NCBI GenBank assembly: GCA_038874135.1
Contig: JAVZCZ010000001.1
Span: 64,001-128,000 of the forward strand
Length of the DNA stretch: 64,000 nucleotides
Direction: 5' to 3'
Source of the DNA: Candidatus Woesearchaeota archaeon
Lineage (GTDB): Archaea > Nanobdellota > Nanobdellia > Woesearchaeales > 0-14-0-80-44-23
Part shown: in pieces, positions 4,225 to 57,006 of the stretch
Position numbering within the stretch: the stretch's first letter is position 1
How the letters are laid out: each line of letters starts with the position of its first letter
Notes under the pieces: model-generated
The model's input: the letters and a program-made list of their open reading frames with translations, nothing else
The model's database searches: none
What the model was told of the DNA's origin: nothing
Translations under genes and position numbers: made by a program

Positions 4225-5867
4225 AACTTCTCACCCCTGCTCTTGAGCAGCGCTATGGCTTCTTCCCTCTTCTCAAGCTCCTCAGCAATCTTCCTCACTT
4301 CAAATTTTCTGGATATCTCTTTCTGCAGAAGTTCTTCCCTGTATTTTCCCTCAATTGCTTCAATCAAGTCAAGCTCGCCTATCTTAGATATGCCCTTTTT
4401 TATTTCCAACTCTAAATCTTTAACTTCAAGGCTTCTCAGCCGTGCGTAGTCAATTGTTGAGCAAGCCTTCTCCTGAAGCATCTTCAACGCCTTAGTGAGC
4501 TCCCTCGGGCTTAGCACTTCTGAGTAATTCATGCAGAGCTCTGCGGCTCTGAAAAATCCCTCGCGGCTAATATTTACATATCCTGCATCTATTCCCTTCC
4601 TAAGCTTTGAAATTAGAAATTCAGCGTATTCTGCCTCTGTCTGAGGTCCTGGCACCTTGAAGGAAGCTTCACCTATCCTTTCCAGCAGTGCCTCGTCAAG
4701 ATCGCTCGGCTTGTTGCTGGCTGAAAGTATTAGATAGTTTCCATAGTATGAAGTGTCTATTCCTTCTATTATCTGCATCAAGTATATTGTCATGCTCCTG
4801 TCAGGTGCATTTACTTCTGATCCAGACCTGCTGACTACTAGCCCGTCTATGTCGTCTATGAACACTACTCCCACGCCTTCCGGGCTCATTGCCTCTCTGG
4901 TTTTTGTTCTTAAGATTTCTTCAGTTTCTCCATACCACTTCTTCTTTATTGAGGAGTCAATTGTAACCCAGCTGAATTTCTTCCCGCTCTGCTCAGATAA
5001 TTGTCTCATGTAGTTTCGCATTGCAGCTGCGAGGCTGGTTTTTCCAGTCCCAGGCCTGGCGTATAGGAATACTGTTCGCGGTATGTAGCTCACTTTTAGT
5101 ATTGGGTTGTTTCTTTCTTTGGGGCTGTAGAGGAATAGCATCTCTGCATATCTCTGCAGTGCGGACTTCGCCTCGCTGTTTCCTATTATGTCCTGGAAGG
5201 TTATCTGTGCTGTGCTCTCACCTTTTTCTGAAGTAAGCATTTCTGGCTCTGCTTTTTTCCCGTTTTTACATCTTGAGAATCCTTTAATCTTAATTCCATC
5301 TAGCGAGAGCACTGCACTGCTTATTGCGGCTTCAAGCCCTGGATATGCACTTTTTTCTTTGAGGATTTTTTCTTCAAGCGATCCGTATAGAATGCTGAGT
5401 ATTCCCTTTATTTGAGTTCCAGTGTTTGCATTGTTTTTTATTGAGTGTATGTAGGATGAGATTATCGTGTCTAGGTATGCTTCAGGGCTAGACGGGCTTC
5501 CTTCTGAGAAGCTTATGAAGGATAGTTCGTGTTTTAGTTCGGGCAAATCAAATTTTAACATTTCCATTCCTTTTGAGATGCCCGCGTATGTTGCAAACAT
5601 GTTGAGGAATGAATATGTGTCTTCGCTTATGCTACTTGCGCTTGAGATTAGGTATCGCGAGGCGCACTCTCTTACAACATAGAATGTGGCAAGGCATTCT
5701 TCAAGAGATTCTGCAGCTTCATATCCATCTCTTGAAGGCATTCCGATGGCTGTTGCGTCTTTCAGAATTATTGTGTTGTAGAAGTCATATTTCTGTTTAA
5801 GCACTTTTTTTATTTCAATCCTCATCTTGTTTAGTGCTGAATAGTCAATTCTTAGAATCTCTTCCAT
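4221..5867 (-). CDS. AAA+ ATPase (classical clade-like, single module)
   Basis: Walker A ARPGTGKT, pore loop KKWYGETE, Walker B VFIDDID, sensor-1 SASN, SRH LDEALLER. Confidence 0.85.
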   Translation of the reverse strand: MEEILRIDYSALNKMRIEIKKVLKQKYDFYNTIILKDATAIGMPSRDGYEAAESLEECLATFYVVRECASRYLISSASSISEDTYSFLNMFATYAGISKGMEMLKFDLPELKHELSFISFSEGSPSSPEAYLDTIISSYIHSIKNNANTGTQIKGILSILYGSLEEKILKEKSAYPGLEAAISSAVLSLDGIKIKGFSRCKNGKKAEPEMLTSEKGESTAQITFQDIIGNSEAKSALQRYAEMLFLYSPKERNNPILKVSYIPRTVFLYARPGTGKTSLAAAMRNYMRQLSEQSGKKFSWVTIDSSIKKKWYGETEEILRTKTREAMSPEGVGVVFIDDIDGLVVSRSGSEVNAPDRSMTIYLMQIIEGIDTSYYGNYLILSASNKPSDLDEALLERIGEASFKVPGPQTEAEYAEFLISKLRKGIDAGYVNISREGFFRAAELCMNYSEVLSPRELTKALKMLQEKACSTIDYARLRSLEVKDLELEIKKGISKIGELDLIEAIEGKYREELLQKEISRKFEVRKIAEELEKREEAIALLKSRGEKL

Positions 5868-14017: not shown

Positions 14018-14518
14018 ATGCTTTCATCATTCGTAAAGAAGCTCCTCTTCGCTAGCGAGTTTATGCTGCAGGACGGCAGGAATGAGATGCTTGGCGAGAG
14101 GCAGGCGTTAATCCCTTCTAAGCTGCTTACTCAGCTTCAGGACATATCACCTAAGAAAGCTTACGAAATAAGTAAGAGAATCATGAAGGAAGAGACTGAT
14201 GTTGTTACTCAGAAGATTGGAGAGAGCAAGGCTGAAATGATTACTGCTATGAAGGACTTCTTTGAAACCCTGGGCCTTGGCAATTTGGAAATAGTAGATC
14301 TGGACCTTATAAAGAAGAGAGCCATATTTAGAATTCATGACAGTCCTATAGCTGTGGCGCACATATACTATAAGAAAAAGGAGAACTGTAGTATCACCGC
14401 CGGGGTTATTGCTGGAATGATGTCTTCAATATTTGATACTGACGCAGATGCTATAGAAAAGGAGTGCATGGTAAATGGGAGTGCGTACTGCGAGTTTGTA
14501 ATAAAAACTGAGGAATGA
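14018..14518 (+). CDS. V4R (4-vinyl reductase) domain protein
   Basis: GLGNLEI...SPIA...CxxxAGxxAG...EKECMVNGSAYCEF. Confidence 0.85.
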   Translation: MLSSFVKKLLFASEFMLQDGRNEMLGERQALIPSKLLTQLQDISPKKAYEISKRIMKEETDVVTQKIGESKAEMITAMKDFFETLGLGNLEIVDLDLIKKRAIFRIHDSPIAVAHIYYKKKENCSITAGVIAGMMSSIFDTDADAIEKECMVNGSAYCEFVIKTEE

Positions 14519-14534
14519 AAAAGAGGGATGAAAT

Positions 14535-15290
14535 ATGATGCGCTGTAAAACTGGGATAAAGGGCTTTGACGAGCTGGTAGAGGGCGGATTTCCTAAGGGC
14601 TCTACAATCCTTATAGCAGGAGATCCGGGCACTGGAAAAACCATATTCGGATTGCAATTCATTTATAACGGCGCAGTGAAGTTTAATGAGAAGGGGCTTT
14701 ACCTCTCACTTGAACAAACAGCAGATGCCATCAGGAACCAAGCTCTCCAATTCGGTTGGGACCTCAAAAAGCTTGAGGAGCAGGGCAAGCTTAAAATAGT
14801 CTCAATACCCGTTAGAGATATAAGTTCAACTACTGCCAGGGAAATTTTGGAAATGTGCAGAAATGAGGGAATAAAACGCTTAGTGATTGACTCCCTATCC
14901 ACCCTTGCAATAAACGCTCCCATATACGCAACCCATCAAGAGCTATCAATAAGGGATGTAATTAAGGAAGATGTATTCTTTTCACCCCCAATAATGGGGG
15001 ACATGATTGTTAAACGGTTCATCTACACCTTCATAAATGACCTGCAATCCTTAGAAGAAACCACAACCGTCCTAATCTCGGAATCCACAAGTTACAACTC
15101 ATTCCCTGAAAATGCGCTTGCAGAATTCTTAGCAGACGGCGTTGTTCACATAAGCTTTGAGAGCATGGGCGGCACATACTCTAGAAGCCTGCTGGTAAGA
15201 AAGATGAGGCAGACCAAGAATGATGAGGACCTTCACCCATTAGAAATATCTAAGGAAGGCCTCATTGTTCATAGCCTGGAAGAGAATTAG
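14535..15290 (+). CDS. KaiC-like RecA-superfamily ATPase (single domain)
   Basis: TGIKGFDELVEGGFP, GDPGTGKT, VIDSLS, ADGV, RKMRQT. Confidence 0.9.
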   Translation: MMRCKTGIKGFDELVEGGFPKGSTILIAGDPGTGKTIFGLQFIYNGAVKFNEKGLYLSLEQTADAIRNQALQFGWDLKKLEEQGKLKIVSIPVRDISSTTAREILEMCRNEGIKRLVIDSLSTLAINAPIYATHQELSIRDVIKEDVFFSPPIMGDMIVKRFIYTFINDLQSLEETTTVLISESTSYNSFPENALAEFLADGVVHISFESMGGTYSRSLLVRKMRQTKNDEDLHPLEISKEGLIVHSLEEN

Positions 15291-15316
15291 GCATCTTAGG
15301 AGAGCTCGGGGTAGCT

Positions 15317-16522
15317 ATGAAAAAGCAGTTAATCCAATTAATGAGCAGGATAATTGGCTTCAAAGCAATCTCGTTTGACGGACACCACATAATCCTATTG
15401 AAGGTGCCCATGATTTTTATTCCATACGAAACGCTTGTAAGGTTTCAGGAAGCATTAGTTCAGAAGTTGGGCTTTGAAACCGCATACGCTATAATGTTCG
15501 GCCTTGGAAGAATACAGGGTTATAATGGTACTAGTATATACATAAAAAATTATAATATCCAGCCGGACGCTTCAGACCTGAACTTCTTTCTTGAACAGGC
15601 ACACCTTGTTGGACTTGGCAAAATAACTATTGAAAAAGTTGATATGGAAAGCAGGCACGGTATTCTCATATATCACAACTCGCCTGAAGCTGTTAAGTAT
15701 AAGGATCTTTACGGCTTGCAAAAGAATCCTGTTGACTTATACCAGCTCGGGATGATTTCAGGAGCAGCCCAGGCAGTTCTTCGTGGTAAGGACATAATCG
15801 GGATAGAGAAGCAGTGCCTTGCCAAGGGCGACCCGAACTGCTTTATTGAGCTCAAAGAGCGCGATGTTTGGCTTTCTGAAGGTGAATATTCTAAACAGCT
15901 TCCAGCACAATTGAAAGATGTGGAGCAGCTCAGTAAGATTGAAACACTCTCTTCACTCCTTGAACCGATACAAATTGATGAAGAAGATATATCACCTCTT
16001 ATGCTTCAACTTTCTAAGCTGAAAAAAAATGTTTACACATTCAGCGAACAGGGAATAAACCTTTTAGATATCAACGGCATGATCACCCCTATAGAAATCT
16101 TGAGCCTGCTGGCATATGTGGCTAATAAGCTGAGTGCAGACGATGGAGCCGAGATATTTTATAATACCGGATTTGATGAGGGCAAACTGATTTTTGAAAG
16201 TTTAAACAGGGTACTCCACTTTAAAAGGGACTTCTCATCAGTTAGCATGGCTTTTGAAGCAGTAGGCCTTTTGGGACTTGGAAGTGCTGAACTTCTGCGC
16301 GCTGATATGAAAAGCACAAGTTTTCTGGTTAAGGTTAAAGACAACTATCTTGCTAAGAAGTACTTGAAGTTTTTTGGAATGCAGAAGAAACCATTTGACC
16401 ATTACTTGACTGGAATTCTAGCGGGAATAGCCAGCTCTCTCACAGGCGAGAAGCTTACTGCTTCTGAAGTGAAGTGTGTCGTGCAGGGCGCTCAGGCTTG
16501 CACTTTTGAGATAAAAAAATAA
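15317..16522 (+). CDS. tandem V4R domain protein
   Basis: Two repeats, each with GLG...PxDxYxxGxxxG...ExxCxxxGxxxCxxE. Confidence 0.85.
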   Translation: MKKQLIQLMSRIIGFKAISFDGHHIILLKVPMIFIPYETLVRFQEALVQKLGFETAYAIMFGLGRIQGYNGTSIYIKNYNIQPDASDLNFFLEQAHLVGLGKITIEKVDMESRHGILIYHNSPEAVKYKDLYGLQKNPVDLYQLGMISGAAQAVLRGKDIIGIEKQCLAKGDPNCFIELKERDVWLSEGEYSKQLPAQLKDVEQLSKIETLSSLLEPIQIDEEDISPLMLQLSKLKKNVYTFSEQGINLLDINGMITPIEILSLLAYVANKLSADDGAEIFYNTGFDEGKLIFESLNRVLHFKRDFSSVSMAFEAVGLLGLGSAELLRADMKSTSFLVKVKDNYLAKKYLKFFGMQKKPFDHYLTGILAGIASSLTGEKLTASEVKCVVQGAQACTFEIKK

Positions 16523-16530
16523 GATCTCAA

Positions 16531-17313
16531 CTATTTCTGCGCGACTACCAGATCATCTATTCCTTCTCCAGTTTTTGGATCTCTGTAAAAATCGTTTGAA
16601 AAGTAGAGGATGTTGAACCCGGCATACATTACCCATCTCTTAAATTCTTCTGAAGCGTGCATTGGGTATCTTCCAGAGAGCTGTCCTTTGTGAAAGTTCT
16701 CGTTCTCCCTCTTTGCAGCCCTGTATTTTATGAAGTGGTAAACTGTGGGTAGGATTGCAAATACTCCATATCCGCTCTTTTTGAAGTCCTCATAGGTCCA
16801 CTTAAAAATCTGTTTACTCCAGTTTTCAACTTTTAGTTCTCTTCCTATATCTACTGCAATCATCACTCCGCCAGGCTTGAGCCAATGGTATATGTTCCTT
16901 ATTACTTTCTCAGGTTTGCCGGTGTAATTCAAAACATGGGTTATGTTTATTAGGTCAAAGAATCCTTCCGGGTAGGTGTTTATGTCTGTGCAATCTGCCT
17001 GTTCTAAGCGGATTATTTGTTCAAGGGACTTTGTTTGTACTTTTTTCTTAGTTATTGCTAACATGTCTTCGCTATAGTCAGACGCGTATATCTTTAAGCC
17101 ATCGTTATGTTTGAGAGCTTCATATATTTCAAGTGTAAAATTTCCAGTTCCGCAGCCTATATCTCCAACTATCTTGGCATTCCTAGCGTATAGGGATATT
17201 AAATCTCTGTAAACAGATAGAAGACGCTGATACTCTCTATTGTGCTTAGCAAGTTCGTCGTAAGGGCTGGCTTCGCTGGTGCCAGCATAATTTCTCAAAT
17301 TTACTTTGCTCAT
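16531..17313 (-). CDS. class I SAM-dependent methyltransferase
   Basis: GDIGCGTGNF, SDYSEDML, QADC, LKPGG; start moved to the ATG after GAGGTG. Confidence 0.9.
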   Translation of the reverse strand: MSKVNLRNYAGTSEASPYDELAKHNREYQRLLSVYRDLISLYARNAKIVGDIGCGTGNFTLEIYEALKHNDGLKIYASDYSEDMLAITKKKVQTKSLEQIIRLEQADCTDINTYPEGFFDLINITHVLNYTGKPEKVIRNIYHWLKPGGVMIAVDIGRELKVENWSKQIFKWTYEDFKKSGYGVFAILPTVYHFIKYRAAKRENENFHKGQLSGRYPMHASEEFKRWVMYAGFNILYFSNDFYRDPKTGEGIDDLVVAQK

Positions 17314-17324
17314 TTTTTTCACCT

Positions 17325-18542
17325 CTAATAGTACCTGTCCCAAGGCGTTTTGTACACCGTTATGTACTTGCTTATCTCTGAACTGTTCAGGGGCTTGAGC
17401 AGGACATCTAAAACTGGAATACTCAGCTGGCTATCACTTGCACTCTTTTTTCCCTCTTTTATGTCAAAATACTCACTCATTACTTCGTCAATGTTTAGCT
17501 TCATCCCAACATATTTTCCTGGAAAATCTCCGCTTTCATCTCCTTTGAGAGTTGCGTGTTCAAATGGCTCTCCAACCTGCTTGAAACCAAGCTTCGCATA
17601 AGTCCTTATAAGCTTTGGCAGACAAGTGAGGTAGAGCTCGTTCTGTTTAAACTCGTATTTCGCAGATATGAAAGCTTCTATCAGGAGCGGAATTGCTATT
17701 GGACTTTTGAACTCAATTCCGTTTTCAGCGTTTAAGAATGTGGATAAAATTGCACTCCTATAATCTGGATGCACCATCCACTTTCCAACCCGCAGGGTCA
17801 TCCTGTCGCCAGTGCCGAAGTCAAATCCGTCCAGAGGTCCCTTGTCCATCCAGAGGCGAACTGTTCCAACACATTTGCCCCCCTTCATGGCAACATAGTG
17901 CTTGGAAAGGTTGTTTATTCTTCCGTCAGGAGTGAAGTCTGCTTCATCCCACTTCTCTTTCCGCCTTGCCTGCTCTTCAGTTATAACCCCGTCTCTGAAT
18001 CTTTTTTCAAGCTCAGCGTACACCATGTATACGAGCCCTGCTGCAGCGTGAATGTCATAAGCAGTTTCAGCAGGCCTTATTATTATTTCTGAGCCGTCCT
18101 TATCCTTGACTGAAAATTTTATTCCCTCTTCGCTGTCATATTCTCTTAAAAGTTCTTCAATCTTTCCAATTAAACCTTCCTTATTTTCAATTACCTGCTT
18201 TTTGGGAATATATACATCTGCTCCTGCTTCGTTCAACGCAGTTATAATCTCTTCTGGAGTTGCCTGTCCTGAGAGCAGTATCTTTCTCGCTCTGGGGTGG
18301 GTCTGATCAAATCGGCTTAGAAGCTGGTTGCCGTTTTCAGTGCTGCCCTTTAGCACTTCGTCTATTATGAAGATTGGTATGCTTATTCCTTCCCTATCCA
18401 GGTAGTCGCTTATTTCCACTGCTTCTTCAGATGTTTTGCAGGCTATGCATTCAAAGTATGGGAAGTGATTTCTTATGCTGTTATATAAGAAATCTTCAAG
18501 TATATCCGCTTCATCATCCACCATCAAAATTGCTCCTTTCAT
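17325..18542 (-). CDS. response regulator: receiver domain fused to GNAT acyltransferase of the FeeM (N-acyl amino acid synthase)/LuxI-like group
   Basis: REC: VDDE, IIDEVL, LLSG, IPKK. C-terminal: LVYMVY...EKWDEAD...SKHY...VGTVRL...VHPDYR...YAKLGFKQVG. Confidence 0.75.
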   Translation of the reverse strand: MKGAILMVDDEADILEDFLYNSIRNHFPYFECIACKTSEEAVEISDYLDREGISIPIFIIDEVLKGSTENGNQLLSRFDQTHPRARKILLSGQATPEEIITALNEAGADVYIPKKQVIENKEGLIGKIEELLREYDSEEGIKFSVKDKDGSEIIIRPAETAYDIHAAAGLVYMVYAELEKRFRDGVITEEQARRKEKWDEADFTPDGRINNLSKHYVAMKGGKCVGTVRLWMDKGPLDGFDFGTGDRMTLRVGKWMVHPDYRSAILSTFLNAENGIEFKSPIAIPLLIEAFISAKYEFKQNELYLTCLPKLIRTYAKLGFKQVGEPFEHATLKGDESGDFPGKYVGMKLNIDEVMSEYFDIKEGKKSASDSQLSIPVLDVLLKPLNSSEISKYITVYKTPWDRYY

Positions 18543-18555
18543 TTTTTCACCTGTT

Positions 18556-20454
18556 TTATTTTTTTATTGGAAGTATGACTTCAAAGTAGGTCCTTTGCGG
18601 GTCTGAATAAACGCTTATTCTCCCTCCGTGTTGCTTTTCAACTATTTCTCTGCACATATAAAGTCCAATTCCCCTTCCTTCTTCTTTCTTATTCTTTGTG
18701 CTGTAATACTTGTCAAATATCTTGTCTATATCAGAGGGGGGTATCTGAGGCCCGTCGTTTTCTATCCTTACTGCCAGTTCATTTTCGTTAAGTGAGTACG
18801 CGTCTATGATTATGTTTTTTGCTCCGGCTTCAATTGCATTGTTTATTATGTTTGTCCAAACCTGGTCCAGCGCTCCGGGGTAGCATGTTATCTTAGGAAT
18901 TTGTTTATCTTCATATCTCTTATCTATTACAACTCCACCCAGCTTTACTTCCATTATTAGAACTGTGCTGTTTATTCCAGTTCTTATGTCATAGTTTTCT
19001 GCTTTTCCCCCGTAGGTGTAGTCTCTTATAGCTCCTACTAGGTCTGCTATTCTTTTTGCTGATATTTTCATCGTGGATAGCGAATGTCTTATATCAAATA
19101 GCGAGTAAGCTGATTCAATCACTTCCACGCCGTGCCTTTCTATAAGGCTTAGAAGCTTCTCACTAGTGGCTTCTGGCAGTTGCATCTTGGCATATTTTTC
19201 TATTAAGCTGTCAATTGTTATGCCTCTTTTGCTTAGCACTTCTCTAGCCTTCTGCTTTGCTCTTATCCACTCTATCCCGGTAAGGTTTCTGGATGTTTCG
19301 GCGTGTTTCGCTATTTCCTCTTCTAGTGAAAAATAATCGTTCATCTCTTCCTTGGCAATTCCTCTGCTGAATAGCCTGGCTACATTTCTGCTGTATGCTC
19401 CGTTGGCTTCAATCAGGTGTTCTATTCCTGGAAGTACTCCCAGCATAAGCGTGTTTATCTGATGATTTACCTGCTCTGAGAATTTTGCATATTCTGCCTG
19501 CGCTTTTGTTCTCACTATGATTTCCTGTGCCTCTTTTAACTCCTTTAATGCTGTTTCCAATTCGTTGTTTGTTCTTTTTAATTTTTCATTTATGACCTTC
19601 CACTTGTGTGCGAGGTATGCATTTGACAGAACAGGCTGTATTGTGTTGGCAATTTTTTCTAGTATCTTCATTGATTTTTCTGATATCGGATTGAGATCCC
19701 AATAGTCAAAATCTGATAGGTGTATTACGCCCAATACATATTCTGTTCCTCTTTCGTCCTTTGCGAGAATTGGAACCATTATGCTGCACATCTTTATCCA
19801 AAACTCGTATTCAGCTTCTTTTCCCGTCAGGGGTTTGCATCCGTAATCTTCAACATTGCTTCTCTGAAATTGTCTTATCTTTTGTTCTATGTAGTCATCT
19901 ACACTTTTTATTCTCCCTTCGGATATGTCATACTTGAGAAGTTCTTCCAGCTGTTTCTTATTCCTAGTGAATTGTAATCCTCTTTTCTCCCTTACAATTC
20001 TTAATGTTGGCCCTTTTATCTGGGAGTAGTACACTTCGCCAAATTCAATTATGTTTGTATCTTCCATTTCCGGTTGGGGTTCTAACTTGTCGTTGTGAAA
20101 ACATCTTGTTATCTGCTGGTAGGCTATTGGCTGGCTGTTTAATCTTTCCATGTTTTTAAGTTCTGGCTCCAATTTTTTAGCCCGTTGTATTAGTCCTTCA
20201 AATGTGAAGAGCTCTCCATCTTCTATGTCTCTTATCTCAGCTCCTGTTTCTGGAACTAATCTGAACTCTATCAGTTTTATGTTGTTTATTCCTAAACCTT
20301 CTCCAATATCATAAGCTATCTTACTTATGAGTTCGTTTTTGTCGTATTCTTCAGGCTTGTTTATCAGTACGGCTTTCCCGTATTTCTCTCCAAGCCTTTC
20401 TAATAGTGGTTCTCCTTCTCTTTCAAGTATTAAATCCAGGGTGGAAGCCATCAA
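18556..20454 (-). CDS. cytoplasmic GAF-containing sensor histidine kinase
   Basis: GAF end IMVPI...VLGVIHL...ILEKIAN; H-box NHQINT; N-box QVWTNIINNAIEA; NDGPQIP; FDKYYSTK; GRGIGLY; QHGGRI; no TM helix. Confidence 0.9.
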   Translation of the reverse strand: MMASTLDLILEREGEPLLERLGEKYGKAVLINKPEEYDKNELISKIAYDIGEGLGINNIKLIEFRLVPETGAEIRDIEDGELFTFEGLIQRAKKLEPELKNMERLNSQPIAYQQITRCFHNDKLEPQPEMEDTNIIEFGEVYYSQIKGPTLRIVREKRGLQFTRNKKQLEELLKYDISEGRIKSVDDYIEQKIRQFQRSNVEDYGCKPLTGKEAEYEFWIKMCSIMVPILAKDERGTEYVLGVIHLSDFDYWDLNPISEKSMKILEKIANTIQPVLSNAYLAHKWKVINEKLKRTNNELETALKELKEAQEIIVRTKAQAEYAKFSEQVNHQINTLMLGVLPGIEHLIEANGAYSRNVARLFSRGIAKEEMNDYFSLEEEIAKHAETSRNLTGIEWIRAKQKAREVLSKRGITIDSLIEKYAKMQLPEATSEKLLSLIERHGVEVIESAYSLFDIRHSLSTMKISAKRIADLVGAIRDYTYGGKAENYDIRTGINSTVLIMEVKLGGVVIDKRYEDKQIPKITCYPGALDQVWTNIINNAIEAGAKNIIIDAYSLNENELAVRIENDGPQIPPSDIDKIFDKYYSTKNKKEEGRGIGLYMCREIVEKQHGGRISVYSDPQRTYFEVILPIKK

Positions 20455-20549
20455 AGAAAAGAACCACTTTCAATATTTAAATTTTTCTAAAAAGGTTGTT
20501 ATTGTGCAGTTAAGAAAACTTTATATATTTGCTTATTTTACTCGTGCGT

Positions 20550-21431
20550 ATGGATGATAAAATAGAAGGTAAAATGGCAGAAACAGATATCACTGGAACA
20601 AATGGGCTCGCATATCTTCTTAATAAGCTTCTCTCAGACATTTCAGCTCAGGATTTTGTGAGCTACAAGATTAATCGTAAAATCGTTGAAAATAAGGTTT
20701 ATTCCATACTAAACCAAAAAAATAGCTGTTTGCTTACCTCTAGCACATCTGATAATCCTTTGGATACAGAATATTGTTTATTTCTTGAAAATTACTGCAG
20801 TGAAGCAGGATTAAAACTTGTTAATCAGTATAGGTTCTTCTTAATTAAGCGCCCAAACTCTAAGCTGAACTATGAAATAATTGATTACGAAAATACTAAG
20901 ATAATGTGTCAATATACAGAGATATTTACACTGAAAAATTGTAAGAACGAGGCAGAATTAAAAAAACTGCTCAGTGATTTTAAGAATAGTTTTGATAAAA
21001 TTGTTGAAGCGTGCTGCAAGATAGAAGATGAATTTGAAGATTCTATTAAGATAAAAGTGCCTACAAAAATAAACTCTTTTCTTTCTCATGTTGAGAACAT
21101 CAAGTTTGAACATCAGAAAAATTCCAGCACGCCTATAATTATAAGAGAGATAAGCAATATCTTGTCTGAAATGCTCTATCCTGAGAAGCCATACCTCTCC
21201 GGTTTTGATTTATCCGCTCAGAATGAGGTGTTGTCAAAATATGACGGTTCTTATTTGATGCTCATAGCCAGGATTATCACAGGAGATCTCATACATAATA
21301 GTGGGTTTAAGAGTTTTGAAAATGAAGAAGAACTTAAAGCTCGCGTATCATCCAAAGCAAACGAATTGTATGCGCAGCCGCTAGAAGAAATTATAAATAA
21401 AATAAAATCTTCTTACCAGTTAACATTTTGA
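20550..21431 (+). CDS. hypothetical protein
   Basis: ~290-aa ORF with TTTATATA upstream; no motif recognised. Confidence 0.55.
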   Translation: MDDKIEGKMAETDITGTNGLAYLLNKLLSDISAQDFVSYKINRKIVENKVYSILNQKNSCLLTSSTSDNPLDTEYCLFLENYCSEAGLKLVNQYRFFLIKRPNSKLNYEIIDYENTKIMCQYTEIFTLKNCKNEAELKKLLSDFKNSFDKIVEACCKIEDEFEDSIKIKVPTKINSFLSHVENIKFEHQKNSSTPIIIREISNILSEMLYPEKPYLSGFDLSAQNEVLSKYDGSYLMLIARIITGDLIHNSGFKSFENEEELKARVSSKANELYAQPLEEIINKIKSSYQLTF

Positions 21432-21532
21432 GATGCTGTCTTGGTGTCTTCAACTTCTTCCAGCTCTTCAAAGCTGATTATTGAACCGCACTTTGGGCAC
21501 TTATACTTTCTTACCTTCTTGGGCCTTGGCAT
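21413..21532 (-). CDS. 39-aa CPxCG microprotein (not in ORF track)
   Basis: MPRPKKVRKYKCPKCGSIISFEELEEVEDTKTASQNVNW with GGAGGT SD 7 nt upstream. Confidence 0.5.
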   Translation of the reverse strand: MPRPKKVRKYKCPKCGSIISFEELEEVEDTKTASQNVNW

Positions 21533-21649
21533 CTTTCTTACCTCCATCTGAGTATTTTTTTTGTCTTTTTTTATTATTTTCTGTTTAAAAGCTTTAAAGT
21601 ATTTAAAGATATCGGTATATTAAATAGTATATTAGAATACAAAATATAT

Positions 21650-21940
21650 TTATTTTTCCCTTATTTTTTCATAGATTGTATTAACCACATCTTCCACTGT
21701 TTTTATATTATTCAAAGCTTCATCGCTTACTGTGAACTTCTTTCCATACTTCTTATTTAAGGTTTCTTCCAGGTACATTGCAAAGTCCAGCATTGCAAGC
21801 GAATCCAGATAATCCCGGATAGGCGTTTCTGGCTTTATCTCCACTTTTTTGTTATGCGGCTCGCAAATCCTAATCCCATTTTCCACTATCCTATATATCT
21901 CTTTATATTCCCTCTCTTTGTCACTAGGATTATACTCCAT
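21650..21940 (-). CDS. acyl carrier protein
   Basis: IKPETPIRDYLDSLAMLDFAMYLEE...VSDEALNNIKTVEDVV has the phosphopantetheine DSL motif and ACP helix pattern; overlaps the ligase stop. Confidence 0.82.
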   Translation of the reverse strand: MEYNPSDKEREYKEIYRIVENGIRICEPHNKKVEIKPETPIRDYLDSLAMLDFAMYLEETLNKKYGKKFTVSDEALNNIKTVEDVVNTIYEKIREK

Positions 21941-23903
21941 TTTTTTCACCTCTCTCATATTCTTCAAAGAATTTTTTCCTCTTTACCTTCTTAGTTTCTG
22001 AAAGGCACTCTTGCGCTATTGGCTCTGTGTGGAAAACTACTTCATCTATTGTTTCGTGCTTATGGAACCTTTTGCTCTCAATTATTTTTCTTTTAATTTC
22101 TTCCTCTAAATGAGCATAACCTTTATTAACATTTAGAAAATCCTTATTTAAAAATATGTGTGCCCTCAGCTTATCATTTTTGTAAGTAACGACTGCATTA
22201 TCCACATAGGGCAGGGCTCTCAGCTCATTTTCCAGTACGGCTGGCTCAATCTTTTCACCGTTCCTCAACACAATTGTGTCATCAGCCCTCCCAATTATCT
22301 TTATGAATTCATCTATAGTCTTCATCGCCAAATCTCCAGTTTTAAGGTATCCGTCCTGAGTGAATGCCTTAGCAGTTAGCTCTTCATTCTTGTAATAGCC
22401 TTTCATCACATTTGGGCCCCTTAAGAGCAATCTACCCACACTTCCAGGGCCTACTTCTCTTTCATTTTCATCTACTATTTTGTATTCTATTCCTGGGAGC
22501 ACTTTTCCTACGGTGAATATCTTGTGTCCAATGCTCATGTTCTTGTAATATTTTGGAACTCTTACGGCATCCACAACTATGGTTTCTGTCATTCCGTAGC
22601 CCTCGCTTATTTGTGGAATTGTTGGCCTTCCAGCGCTGAAGAACTCATCTATCTCTTCCGGCAGAGGTCCTGCTCCGCTTATTATTATTCTAAGCTTTTT
22701 TCCAATCTTCTCTTTTAGTGGTTCATAAATCTTTTTTTGAGCCAGCTGATGTATTGGCTTTAATAAGGCTGCTTTTATTTTGGATTTTAGAATTTTAGTA
22801 TTGTCTGGCTCCTCTTCTTCTGAAAAGATTGGCTCTTCATCATTTATGATTCTTATTGCTCTGTCGTATTCAATTGCTCCTTTTATGAGCATTTTGGCAA
22901 TTATTTTTTCCAGCGGGGAAGATTGTTCTATCTTTCTCATAGTTGCTTTGTATAGCAGCACTAGTATGTCGGGCACAAGAGTTATTACTGTGTGTTCTGC
23001 ATTTTTTAAGTCGGAGAGTAGCGTGTTTATGCTTCCATAATATATTGAGCCGCCTACTGCGAGCATTCCATAGTTTACCTGTCTTTCATATGCGTGCCAT
23101 ATTGGTAGAATTGTGAGCAGTCTGTCTTCTTCATTTACTCCGAAAACTTTTCCTAATAGTGCCATGTTGTGCATATAGTTGCTGTGGGTGAGCATTGCGC
23201 CTTTCGGAATTCCAGTTGTACCTGAGCTGTATATTATTGAAGCTAGGTCATCCCCTTTCAATTCAGATATTCTTCTCTCAACTTCTGAGCTTCCCTTCTT
23301 GATAAGCTCAACACCAATGCGCATTAAATCTTTATACGAAATTATATTTCCTATTTCTCCTTCAAAGTCCTTGTCTATGACTATTACCTTTTTTAGGCGG
23401 CTTCCATTTTCTGGAAGGTTTTTTATGTATTCCAGTGTTGGGATTATTGCAACTTCTGCTCCTGAGTGTTCCAGTATGGTTCTTATTAGTTCTGAAGGAG
23501 CGTTTACGCCTCTTGGCACATCTACTGCTCCTGAGTATTGTATTGCTAAGTTTGTTATAAGCCACTCTGGAGAGTTTTCTAATATCATGGCAACCCGGGT
23601 TCCCTTTTCAAGTCCGATATACTTTATCAGTGCTTCTGCAAATGTAGTTACCATCTCGTCAAGTTGGGCGTATGTTATACTTTTTAGAGTTTCATCCTGC
23701 TTGTATATTAGAGCTGTTCTGTCAGAAAACTTCTTTGCTGATTCCCTTATAACTTGTGGTATTGTTGAGTATTGGAATTTAAAAGCAGACTCTTCTTTAA
23801 GTTCTCTTCTGTTCTCTTCTTGGTGTTGAATGGTTTCTTCTTTAATTCTTTGTATTGCAGAATGTCTTGAAATTATACTTTCAAGATTATCTTTTCTTAC
23901 CAC
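21930..23903 (-). CDS. long-chain fatty acid--CoA/ACP ligase (AMP-binding, FadD15/Aas-like)
   Basis: YSSGTTGIPKG, LPIWHAYER, EGYGMTET, GPNVMKGYY, TGDL, GRADD, NGEKIEP. Confidence 0.93.
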   Translation of the reverse strand: MVRKDNLESIISRHSAIQRIKEETIQHQEENRRELKEESAFKFQYSTIPQVIRESAKKFSDRTALIYKQDETLKSITYAQLDEMVTTFAEALIKYIGLEKGTRVAMILENSPEWLITNLAIQYSGAVDVPRGVNAPSELIRTILEHSGAEVAIIPTLEYIKNLPENGSRLKKVIVIDKDFEGEIGNIISYKDLMRIGVELIKKGSSEVERRISELKGDDLASIIYSSGTTGIPKGAMLTHSNYMHNMALLGKVFGVNEEDRLLTILPIWHAYERQVNYGMLAVGGSIYYGSINTLLSDLKNAEHTVITLVPDILVLLYKATMRKIEQSSPLEKIIAKMLIKGAIEYDRAIRIINDEEPIFSEEEEPDNTKILKSKIKAALLKPIHQLAQKKIYEPLKEKIGKKLRIIISGAGPLPEEIDEFFSAGRPTIPQISEGYGMTETIVVDAVRVPKYYKNMSIGHKIFTVGKVLPGIEYKIVDENEREVGPGSVGRLLLRGPNVMKGYYKNEELTAKAFTQDGYLKTGDLAMKTIDEFIKIIGRADDTIVLRNGEKIEPAVLENELRALPYVDNAVVTYKNDKLRAHIFLNKDFLNVNKGYAHLEEEIKRKIIESKRFHKHETIDEVVFHTEPIAQECLSETKKVKRKKFFEEYERGEKNGV

Positions 23904-23972
23904 TTTATCACCGATATTTTTTTACTTAGAAGTAGTGATAATTTTATTTTATTTAAATCTTTTGCTTTTTTA

Positions 23973-25055
23973 CTATTTTCCAACTACAATCTTCTTAGCT
24001 TCTATAATTGCTTGCTTGTGCTTCTCCTGATGCTCCTTAAGCATCTTGTTTAAGAATTCCATGCAGTTCTTCTTGCACTCCCCACAGAGAAGCCTGCCGC
24101 TTCTGCACTCTGAATATGTCTCTTCTAAGAATTTGTCTTCAGGATGGTGAAACTTAAAGATTTCATAGACCTTGCAAACTTCAGGATTGCCACCTTTTTT
24201 TCTTTGCTCCTCAACAGATTCTCTGCCACCTGTGAATGCCTTGGATATCTTCTTCTTTACTTCGTCAGGAGTGTCTTTTAAGAATATTGCAGTTTCAGGG
24301 TCTGAGGAGCTCATTTTGGAGTTTTCTTTAAGCCCTGAAAGGTGTTGAAAATAAAAGAAGGATGGAATCTCAAAATTGTAGTCCAGACGCTTTGCCACAT
24401 CTCTTGTCAGCCGAGCGTGAGGATCCTGGTCTATACCTATACCTGTTACCGAAGGGGCCTTCCCAAAGTATTCTGGAAGCTGCACGTGTAGTATGTCTGC
24501 TATCTGCAGGAAAACAGAAGCGATCTTTCCCAAGTCTGTATGCCCGTATATTGCTTCAAACATATTGTTGGTTATCTTTTTTGAAATCTCATATGAAAGC
24601 TGATAATACTCTTTCGGCATGTTTGACTGGGCGTAAATCTCTTCAGCAGGAATTCCGAGAGCGATTGCATCTGCAGCGTTTCTTATTCCTATCTCCTTAG
24701 CAATCTTCATAGAAGGCACTTTTGGGTCTGGTCTACTTACATATCCGTCAATATCTGCTATACAAAATCTGCTCTTGGCTCCTAATTTTCTAAATTCCAG
24801 ATAGAAGTCTATGTCTGTTTTGTGTCCAAGATGTAAATCCCCCGAGGATGCTATTCCTGTTAGTTGTAAGAATTTTTTTCTCTGTTTTATTGCTTCGGCT
24901 ATCTTCTGAAAGTCACGATGTGCTATTATTATCTTTCTTTTGAACAGATAGTGCTGGCTGATTGAGTAGTCGTTAAATTTTGATAATCCGAATTCTTCAA
25001 ACACATGTTCATAGTTTCTTATTGCGTTTGAGTCCCATGCGTTTATCTGAGTCAT
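23973..25055 (-). CDS. trpS: tryptophanyl-tRNA synthetase (archaeal type)
   Basis: HLGH, GIDQDPH, KMSSS, AFTGGR, CGECKK. Confidence 0.94.
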   Translation of the reverse strand: MTQINAWDSNAIRNYEHVFEEFGLSKFNDYSISQHYLFKRKIIIAHRDFQKIAEAIKQRKKFLQLTGIASSGDLHLGHKTDIDFYLEFRKLGAKSRFCIADIDGYVSRPDPKVPSMKIAKEIGIRNAADAIALGIPAEEIYAQSNMPKEYYQLSYEISKKITNNMFEAIYGHTDLGKIASVFLQIADILHVQLPEYFGKAPSVTGIGIDQDPHARLTRDVAKRLDYNFEIPSFFYFQHLSGLKENSKMSSSDPETAIFLKDTPDEVKKKISKAFTGGRESVEEQRKKGGNPEVCKVYEIFKFHHPEDKFLEETYSECRSGRLLCGECKKNCMEFLNKMLKEHQEKHKQAIIEAKKIVVGK

Positions 25056-25460: not shown

Positions 25461-26306
25461 ATGATGAATATGAGCGAATACGAGGCTAAGCTTGAAATTG
25501 CTAAGCAAATTTTAGAATCCCTTTGTAATAAAGAATTGTCACATTCAGAACTGGAAGATATGGTGTACGACTTCTTTAGAGTCAGAAAGAGCAGAGAAGA
25601 AAAAAGCGAATTCCTAAACAATTATGACTCCTATAAGCTTATCCCTTATTCTAAATATGGTTTTGCGCGCAACATTGATAAGAAAAAATGCCTATCCAGA
25701 GAAGACAATTATTGGTTAAGATTTTTGTTCAACCACAAATCAGATTTTCACTACAAAATCCCCAAGCAGGGTTCTGATATTGAATTGTATTACAAAGCAT
25801 ACTTTACTTTAAAAGCAGAAAACCCTGAGGAATTCAAGAAAAATTATGAAAGACTTGGAATGGCTCTTCCTGAAATAATTGCCTTCCTATACGCCCTTGG
25901 AATTGTGAATAAGGATGAAATCCAGGCAAAAGTTTCTAACAATCCATACAAGATGTATACAACCAGAGACAACCTTGTTGTGCACTGCCGCAAGCCCGAA
26001 ACAGTTAAACAGGCAATTGCAGGTATAAATCACATCCTTGAAAAATATGGCACAACAATTGAGATTCACCACGGCTTTGACTTTTATAATAATGGTTCTA
26101 AATTTGAGGGAAGCCACACCCAACTGATATCTAGAATAATCTCAAGAAGGCTCTTAATGAATATAGATGATTACACTTTAATATCACCTGAAAATCTTGC
26201 CTCTTTTATACTTTCACAAAACGATGAGCTATCCCGCATGAGCCCACTTAATTTATACGCTCAGCTTAAAATGACTCAAGGTGAAAATTTTGAAGAGATA
26301 CAATAA
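25461..26306 (+). CDS. hypothetical protein
   Basis: 281-aa ORF overlapping the downstream PRTase gene. Confidence 0.6.
   Translation: MMNMSEYEAKLEIAKQILESLCNKELSHSELEDMVYDFFRVRKSREEKSEFLNNYDSYKLIPYSKYGFARNIDKKKCLSREDNYWLRFLFNHKSDFHYKIPKQGSDIELYYKAYFTLKAENPEEFKKNYERLGMALPEIIAFLYALGIVNKDEIQAKVSNNPYKMYTTRDNLVVHCRKPETVKQAIAGINHILEKYGTTIEIHHGFDFYNNGSKFEGSHTQLISRIISRRLLMNIDDYTLISPENLASFILSQNDELSRMSPLNLYAQLKMTQGENFEEIQ

Positions 26307-54987: not shown

Positions 54988-57006
<2,019 letters not shown>

Follow-up and report, generated by a model that had tools for sequence, protein, structure and literature searches.

FeeM-type N-acyl amino acid synthases (NAS) have been described as users of acyl chains loaded on acyl carrier protein (ACP) (PMC4897644). 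NAS enzymes found with ACP and ligases are already known, and a fusion of a NAS to a PilZ domain has been published (PMC4897644). The physiological role and the regulation of the bacterial NAS are unclear (PMC4897644). The searchable literature yielded no NAS that is fused to a receiver and accompanied by its own kinase and a conserved methyltransferase, nor any account of a response-regulator output of this type. Here we describe a candidate for such a system in a 64,000-nt stretch of DNA, called the window below, that comprises bases 64001–128000 of the genome of a Candidatus Woesearchaeota archaeon (G000). Between positions 16531 and 23903 its minus strand carries genes for a long-chain adenylate-forming ligase, an ACP-like carrier, a soluble sensor histidine kinase, a fusion of a receiver (REC) to a FeeM-like GCN5-related N-acetyltransferase (GNAT) domain, hereafter REC-NAS, and a methyltransferase. 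The reading that we favour, and to which we give about an even chance, is that these genes form one accessory module, controlled directly by a two-component system, for making a small lipid that is N-acylated and probably also methylated.

The locus resembles FeeM-type NAS (PMC4897644, PMC11631085) in having a GNAT fold closest to FeeM, with a carrier and an AMP-forming ligase nearby. It is unlike them in the fused N-terminal receiver, the dedicated kinase, the conserved methyltransferase, the change of the catalytic Glu to Arg, a score under the family threshold, the archaeal host and the lack of an exosortase context. In the metagenomic Nas343 and Nas354, a FeeM-like NAS is likewise fused to a signalling domain, which implies post-translational control (PMC4897644); there the added domain is a C-terminal PilZ that binds c-di-GMP and the catalytic Glu is kept, whereas here an N-terminal receiver is served by a kinase. 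A receiver-fused NAS with its kinase and methyltransferase would provide a testable handle on the role and regulation of these enzymes.

G000 is one contig of 909,956 bp, 99.4% complete, with archaeal 16S and 23S rRNA genes, and its DNA was found in hot-spring metagenome runs; together these features fit a genome-reduced archaeon of the DPANN type. A first-pass annotation of the window had named six genes in the cluster, and open reading frame (ORF) mapping and profile scans recovered all of them where it had placed them. It had also raised the possibility of a chimeric assembly. In two hot-spring samples, which may be the source of the assembly, contigs roughly 100 kb long span positions 16000–24500 with 0 and 1 differences, and a chimeric join is therefore unlikely. 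No membrane segments were predicted in the proteins of the cluster.

The FeeM-like domain and its methyltransferase

The REC-NAS gene (17325–18542, minus strand) encodes a receiver in residues 1–125 (18168–18542, minus) and, in residues 126–405 (17325–18167, minus), a linker, the GNAT domain assigned by structure match, and a conserved C-terminal tail. The domain was modelled with AlphaFold (mean pLDDT 78) and compared by VIA-align with 48,161 representatives of the PDB. The top match was FeeM (2g0b_A; Z 16.2, root-mean-square deviation 3.0 Å, 175/188 residues), with the next hit at Z 14.2, and Foldseek likewise returned FeeM chains as its top four matches (E 8e-8). Synthases of acyl-homoserine lactones (AHL) followed at Z 12–14 (RpaI 13.8, LasI 13.1, TofI 12.8, and MesI), all below FeeM.

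Relatives of the domain are few, as an exhaustive HMMER search with residues 135–405 gave 11 representatives among 1.84 billion proteins. The homologues compared here are the database proteins P0002–P0014 and that of locus L038, which lies on a 5.8-kb contig of a distant bacterial metagenome-assembled genome (MAG), G202. The more distant homologues score 29–58 bits on the Pfam FeeM model (PF21926, threshold 27), for instance 58.1 for P0006, 54.0 for P0007, 50.7 for P0013 and 54.2 for L038. Those that pass are tied to the window domain by phmmer (E 7e-21 to 3e-5), and E values among the sequence homologues passing the model go down to 2e-33 and 7e-21. The homologues score far higher on this model than on Acetyltransf_1, and they weakly match TIGR03694. 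A NAS-domain profile reached FeeM among the PDB sequences marginally (13.7 bits over 49 residues), FeeM was missed when the same sequences were searched with the L038 domain as a single sequence, and the window NAS domain had no NCBIfam match. Both structural aligners rank FeeM first and homologues exceed the Pfam FeeM threshold; the window GNAT is therefore a divergent member of the FeeM/NAS branch and not a generic acetyltransferase. REC-FeeM fusions are found in P0006, P0007, P0012 and L038, and P0013 joins FeeM to a domain binding cyclic nucleotide monophosphates (cNMP), which shows that FeeM enzymes have repeatedly been placed under signalling domains.

Fusions of a regulatory domain to a GNAT that acetylate AMP-forming ligases are an established type, exemplified by MtPat, a cNMP-GNAT protein. 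With a ligase gene nearby, REC-NAS might be a protein acyl- or acetyltransferase of the Pat/MtPat type, directed at the ligase or at other proteins, and the methyltransferase might act on proteins as well. The cNMP-GNAT architecture of P0013, whose cNMP part matches the NCBIfam Pat model, would agree with this. However, that match is confined to residues 15–123, within the cNMP domain, and the homologues prefer Pfam FeeM to Acetyltransf_1 by a wide margin. The fold comparison, in which FeeM is best and the AHL synthases rank high, leaves the GNAT domain of Streptomyces lividans PAT in 18th place (Foldseek, TM score 0.51). A Pat-like function is in our view quite improbable.

The methyltransferase gene (16531–17343, minus) overlaps the REC-NAS gene by 19 nt and is translationally coupled to it. 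Its product matches Methyltransf_11, 31, 12 and 25 at 63–68 bits (Pfam) and belongs to the class I S-adenosylmethionine (SAM)-dependent fold. In all three loci that show this side of REC-NAS, namely the window, the metagenome contig L001 and L038, an orthologous methyltransferase follows (69% identical in L001; 30% identical in L038, E 5e-29). Paralogues within G000 reach only E 5e-6, far weaker than the L038 orthologue.

Proposed two-component control

The kinase gene (18556–20454, minus; 632 aa) is separated from REC-NAS by 13 nt. The protein is composed of a GAF-like N-terminal region, a coiled coil, an H-box (His331), an insertion and an HATPase_c domain (80 bits, Pfam). HisKA was not detected in it, and the kinase of a same-family genome, G003, gave a weak HisKA match; His331 lines up with the histidine of 'FAHEI' in that G003 protein and with the one of 'IAHGV' in a homologous piece from G202. 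The protein had been described as a soluble GAF histidine kinase. A soluble kinase is well in line with the absence of transmembrane segments and with the HATPase_c score, but GAF has no Pfam match even at E ≤ 1, and only a language-model look-up points to it (GAF clusters at 0.95, with 162–166 shared features).

In G202 the kinase gene beside the methyltransferase (L038, 4968–5822) starts at the equivalent of about residue 405, and has neither a sensor nor an H-box. A separate ORF of 182 aa (L060, G202:C15, 377–925) contains a GAF-like end, a coiled coil and an H-box. The kinase may be split in this genome, or the arrangement may be an artefact of the assembly or of a frameshift.

The receiver scores 24.8 bits on Response_reg against a Pfam cut-off of 30.2. 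It folds in a CheY-like manner, and D9, D10, D61, S91 and K114 are invariant among close homologues, with Asp61 as the phospho-acceptor. The receiver-GNAT fusion proposed earlier is thus borne out, with an intact-looking receiver that adjoins the kinase. It is the only REC domain of G000 in a whole-genome Pfam search, and among the three HATPase_c matches of the genome only the window kinase adjoins a receiver. The other two, at window positions 55201–55509 (G000:C1:119201–119509, plus) and at G000:C1:892598–892858 (minus), lie in ORFs of 672 and 600 aa and are presumably GHKL ATPases of another kind. As the genome is a single contig, 99% complete, and has a single REC with a single kinase beside it, the pairing is unambiguous; the kinase and REC-NAS are, as judged from the sequence, the only two-component pair of G000, and its predicted output is enzymatic. 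The DPANN cell would then spend its only two-component system on lipid chemistry and not on transcription.

The first-pass annotation had gone further and compared the cluster with quorum sensing, with LuxI and with PhcB. In a true quorum-sensing circuit the product would be a diffusible autoinducer and the kinase would sense it. The rpf cluster for the diffusible signal factor (DSF) consists of a ligase, a synthase, a kinase and an enzymatic response regulator, and is in this respect analogous. With LuxI, PhcB and Rpf the locus would share a related fold, seen in the Z scores of RpaI, LasI and TofI, and the combination of an acyl-derived product with two-component logic. Nevertheless, the window protein has no match to Autoind_synth (PF00765) at E ≤ 0.01 (P0006 reaches E 0.033), its motif reads R-V-G-K instead of E-x-S-R, and the AHL synthases stand below FeeM in fold similarity; the LuxI analogy is not upheld, and that with PhcB is conjectural. 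Pfam scans of the neighbourhood showed no adjacent exporter gene. No part of the kinase lies in or beyond the membrane; it acts upstream of the synthase, its only partner, and no other REC or DNA-binding regulator that could receive a signal or give a transcriptional output was found in G000. Because a cytoplasmic kinase feeds the synthase in a genome with no other regulator, the sensing half of the proposal is unsupported, and we consider a quorum-sensing circuit very improbable.

Ligase, carrier protein and proposed pathway

The ligase gene (21930–23903, minus) encodes a COG1022/ACSL-like protein of 657 aa with matches to AMP-binding (272 bits, E 1.1e-80) and AMP-binding_C_3 in Pfam. The A3, A5, A8 and A10 motifs are legible in the translation (SSGTTGIPKG, EGYGMTE, GRADD and a C-terminal KVKRKK). 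The best NCBIfam matches are long-chain fatty acid ligases, including the acyl-ACP synthetase module region of Aas (E 2.6e-47). An acyl-ACP synthetase is proposed, with a role as acyl-coenzyme A (acyl-CoA) synthetase as the alternative. The pairing of an AMP-forming long-chain ligase with an ACP recalls the acyl-ACP synthetases Aas of Escherichia coli, AasS of Vibrio and Aas of cyanobacteria, and L038 adds an Aas-like acyltransferase. Unlike in those systems, the window proteins are separate and not fused, the phosphopantetheinyl transferase (PPTase) is missing from the searches of G000, and the acceptor, ACP or CoA, is a prediction.

The ACP-like gene (21650–21967, minus) overlaps the ligase stop by 11–38 nt; the true start is likely the ATG at 21940 (MEY...), which overlaps the ligase stop. 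In the PP-binding (PF00550) check of the proposed carrier, the protein does match, but at 18.0 bits it stays under the cut-off of 20.8; it also matches NCBIfam ACP models, the best at E 6e-8, all under their cut-offs. The serine of its DSL motif aligns with the attachment serine of AcpM. D46-S47-L48 is invariant in five relatives, among them two copies in the same-genus genome G001 (93% complete) and those of G003 and L038, and the PP-binding threshold is passed by one G001 copy (26.9 bits) and by the L038 ACP (42 bits). The window carrier is the sole PP-binding match of G000, with no second carrier protein. A predicted complex of the NAS domain with the ACP scored 0.32 against 0.30 for a control. 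ACP is rare in archaea (PMC3533463), and it is unusual to meet a receiver-fused NAS in an archaeon that has a carrier without a recognisable PPTase (PMC3533463).

A weakly related ACP-like gene was also seen in a DPANN genome of the same order, G100, within a sugar-modification cluster (L036, G100:C1:403000–422000). This cluster includes a short-chain dehydrogenase/reductase (SDR), NeuB, an MbnB/TglH-like protein, a GNAT, a methyltransferase, DegT and class-III aminotransferases and a B12-radical SAM protein, and a PPTase of the AcpS type lies about 11 kb away. A weak ACP match in the unpublished genome G123 was left out of the comparisons.

In the favoured reading, the ligase would adenylate an exogenous long-chain fatty acid and load it onto the co-translated carrier, as Aas does. 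The kinase would sense a cytoplasmic ligand through its GAF-like domain, autophosphorylate at His331 and pass the phosphate to Asp61; the architecture for these steps is seen in the sequence, as are the pairing of kinase and receiver, the family to which each part belongs and the recurrence of the set, and the chemistry is predicted. Phosphorylation may then switch the FeeM-family domain, which would transfer the acyl chain to an amino acid or another amine, and the resulting compound would be methylated by the methyltransferase, on either a carboxyl or an amine. This compound might be a lipid of the membrane, a surfactant or a signalling molecule.

The ornithine lipid enzymes OlsB, OlsA and OlsG offer a second comparison. 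OlsB belongs to the same GNAT branch: L038 and P0013 match it weakly, matches to Acetyltransf_5 were seen as well, and the PlsC-type O-acyltransferase of L038 gave a weak OlsA hit. The methyltransferase could correspond to the N-methylation of ornithine lipids (PMC12971839). On the other side, all scores lie far under the cut-offs, including those of L038 for OlsB, OlsA and an exosortase-associated acyltransferase, the known pathways are not receiver-fused, and no PlsC-type acyltransferase (PF01553) was matched in G000. The PlsC gene in L038 suggests that the G202 counterpart could make a diacyl aminolipid in an OlsB/OlsA-like manner, and the archaeon a mono-acyl product. Ornithine lipids are reported to be absent from archaea (PMC12493201, PMC12971839), as are aminolipids (PMC12493201).

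The strongest extension of the favoured reading is that a genome-reduced DPANN cell unable to make fatty acids uses its single two-component system to gate, at the post-translational level, the conversion of fatty acids from a host or neighbour into a methylated N-acyl amino compound. Whether an aminolipid of archaeal type or a methyl ester resembling AHLs, this compound would have its effect on the host or on neighbouring cells. Bacteria would share the module through transfer, and the carrier would be activated by a PPTase that is not recognised. We regard this extension as speculative and rather improbable.

Recurrence, linkage and neighbouring genes

REC-NAS is extremely rare. Among 401 genomes of the phylum to which G000 belongs, it was found in G000 alone (0 of the 400 others); it was found in none of 60 relatives, and in 1 of 93 genomes of the phylum of G202. 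A scan of genome contigs with the single REC-NAS protein gave no match, and a search of plasmid proteins gave marginal Vibrio matches only. Close copies (57–69% identity) occur in metagenomes only; the metagenome scan yielded one true relative, L001 (69% identity), the other matches covering the REC domain alone. In L001 the order is REC-NAS, methyltransferase and a convergent V4R/KaiC/V4R block, the same as in the window.

L038 is the sole REC-NAS match among the GTDB species genomes, and there the two halves of the cluster occur together again. On one strand it carries the C-terminus of a ligase, an ACP, a PlsC acyltransferase, an MNT/HEPN pair, REC-NAS, a methyltransferase and a kinase. REC-NAS is 32% identical to that of the window and has the canonical Glu, the methyltransferase is 30% identical, and the catalytic part of the kinase is 39% identical. 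Over its whole length the ligase fragment matches the final 72 residues of the ligase of G001 (E 4e-8; AMP-binding_C_3 weak), and a second G202 contig carries at its edge the N-terminal portion of a ligase with 38% identity. The ACP and REC-NAS are 3.1 kb apart in the window and 1.9 kb in L038, on the same strand in each. The first-pass annotation had made the linkage of the ligase-ACP block with the kinase/REC-NAS/methyltransferase block a test of its proposal, and this linkage is now seen in a distant bacterial MAG. Recurrence of the gene set on one contig of such a genome suggests a functional module. The co-occurrence sample is small, two loci with both blocks and one partial, and is drawn from contigs other than those encoding P0002–P0014.

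The partial case is G003 (L037, G003:C122), in which a fragment of an ACP gene precedes, by 1.3 kb, a kinase whose sensor is of the type seen in the window. After this kinase come a single-domain receiver and then a receiver with an unidentified region, cut by the contig end (3093–4310); no NAS-like output was seen in the visible part, which the contig end truncates. In G001 (L035) the order is tryptophanyl-tRNA synthetase (TrpRS), a 51% identical ligase, two ACP genes and toxin-antitoxin genes, and the ligase-ACP overlap is kept. Upstream of this ligase G001 has an ORF of 156 aa for which G000 offers no homologue. No ACP was found in the fetched flanks of more distant ligase homologues of the order, and ligase-ACP pairing is rare there. 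As to co-occurrence in relatives, which the first-pass annotation had proposed to check, the ligase-ACP pair recurs in G001, and REC-NAS was not found in any of the 400 other genomes of the phylum.

Several findings weigh against one NAS module. The first-pass annotation had likened the GNAT to FeeM, and fold and homologues agree with it, but the window protein itself reaches 16.9 bits on Pfam FeeM, under the threshold of 27. Arg occupies the catalytic-Glu column (R251, motif LRVGKW) in the window protein and its five closest relatives, P0002–P0005 and P0008, so that the chemistry may differ from that of FeeM or be lost. The genome search for a PPTase that had been suggested found none: the complete G000 has no PF01648 match, jackhmmer searches that used AcpS from G100 and from G202 as queries returned nothing at E ≤ 10, and PF01648 was also not found in G001 and G003 (it is present in G100 and G202). 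With no detectable PPTase in these three genomes, the route of the carrier to its holo form is unexplained. NAS, kinase and methyltransferase were not found in G001, which has ligase-ACP-ACP, and the two blocks can therefore exist apart. They are separated by a divergent ORF in the window and by a toxin-antitoxin pair in L038, and have been seen together in two loci only. The acceptor, the product and the methylation site are pure inference.

The separate existence of the blocks bears on an alternative with two independent neighbouring units. The ligase and ACP would serve salvage or re-acylation of lysolipids in the manner of Aas, and the kinase, REC-NAS and methyltransferase would use acyl-CoA or another donor. 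The G001 arrangement beside TrpRS and the genes intervening between the blocks in both loci agree with it, as does the L038 ACP being followed by a PlsC whose best NCBIfam match is the Aas acyl-[ACP]-phospholipid O-acyltransferase. Yet REC-NAS is so rare that its two loci with enough flank, both of which carry ligase-ACP within about 3 kb on the same strand, would hardly be expected of unrelated neighbours; ACP-kinase adjacency is found in G003 too, and in the order a ligase is seldom paired with an ACP. Two separate units are unlikely in our judgement.

The Arg in the catalytic column suggests another alternative, that the NAS-like domain is non-catalytic and binds acyl-ACP or lipid as an output or sensor, so that the operon regulates by binding. 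Glu103 of Nas354, which corresponds to Glu95 of FeeM, is needed for activity, the E103A variant being inactive (PMC4897644). The equivalence of the window position to Glu95 was taken from the profile position (about 84–85 of 158) and the location in beta4, and not from a residue-level superposition. The Glu is kept in a REASK-type motif (E-x-S-K/R in beta4) in P0006, P0007, P0009, P0012, P0014 and L038. Throughout the window clade it is changed to Arg, the Ser of the same motif to Gly, and two clade-specific insertions flank the beta4-alpha3 loop; these changes, and the failure to find a PPTase in G000, would suit a binding protein. However, K254, H258-P259, Y261-R262, Y315, G319, F320 and G324 are strongly kept over 26–68% identity, every locus keeps the coupled methyltransferase, and not every GNAT enzyme needs a general base. 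Loss of catalysis seems improbable to us.

Weighing these points, we still favour one module for an N-acylated, probably methylated lipid. We read the gene set as a rare and apparently mobile module whose halves can travel apart, yet co-occur far above chance given their rarity, and it was probably acquired horizontally. The toxin-antitoxin genes by the ligase-ACP genes of G001 and G202 suggest a variable genomic neighbourhood. These genes, MNT with PIN or HEPN, lie directly beside ligase-ACP at 4879–6042 of L035 and 2105–3158 of L038.

The divergent 300-aa ORF between the two blocks (20529–21431, plus) lies where the GC content of this portion of the window is lowest (0.34). It has no Pfam, NCBIfam or usable Atlas match and no counterpart in L038 or L035, and is probably outside the module. 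A weak paralogue (E 1.7e-4), which matches no family, lies about 4 kb away at 25461–26306 (plus).

Convergent to the methyltransferase gene is a block of V4R, a KaiC-like ATPase and V4R-XylR_N (14018–16522, plus; Pfam). It is a conserved neighbour, and its membership of the module is unproven. The trio has the same order beside the methyltransferase in L001 (1379–3549). It is also found in G003 (L063, G003:C56), on another contig than the G003 kinase, and there its convergent partner is a different, 403-aa protein with a methyltransferase domain.

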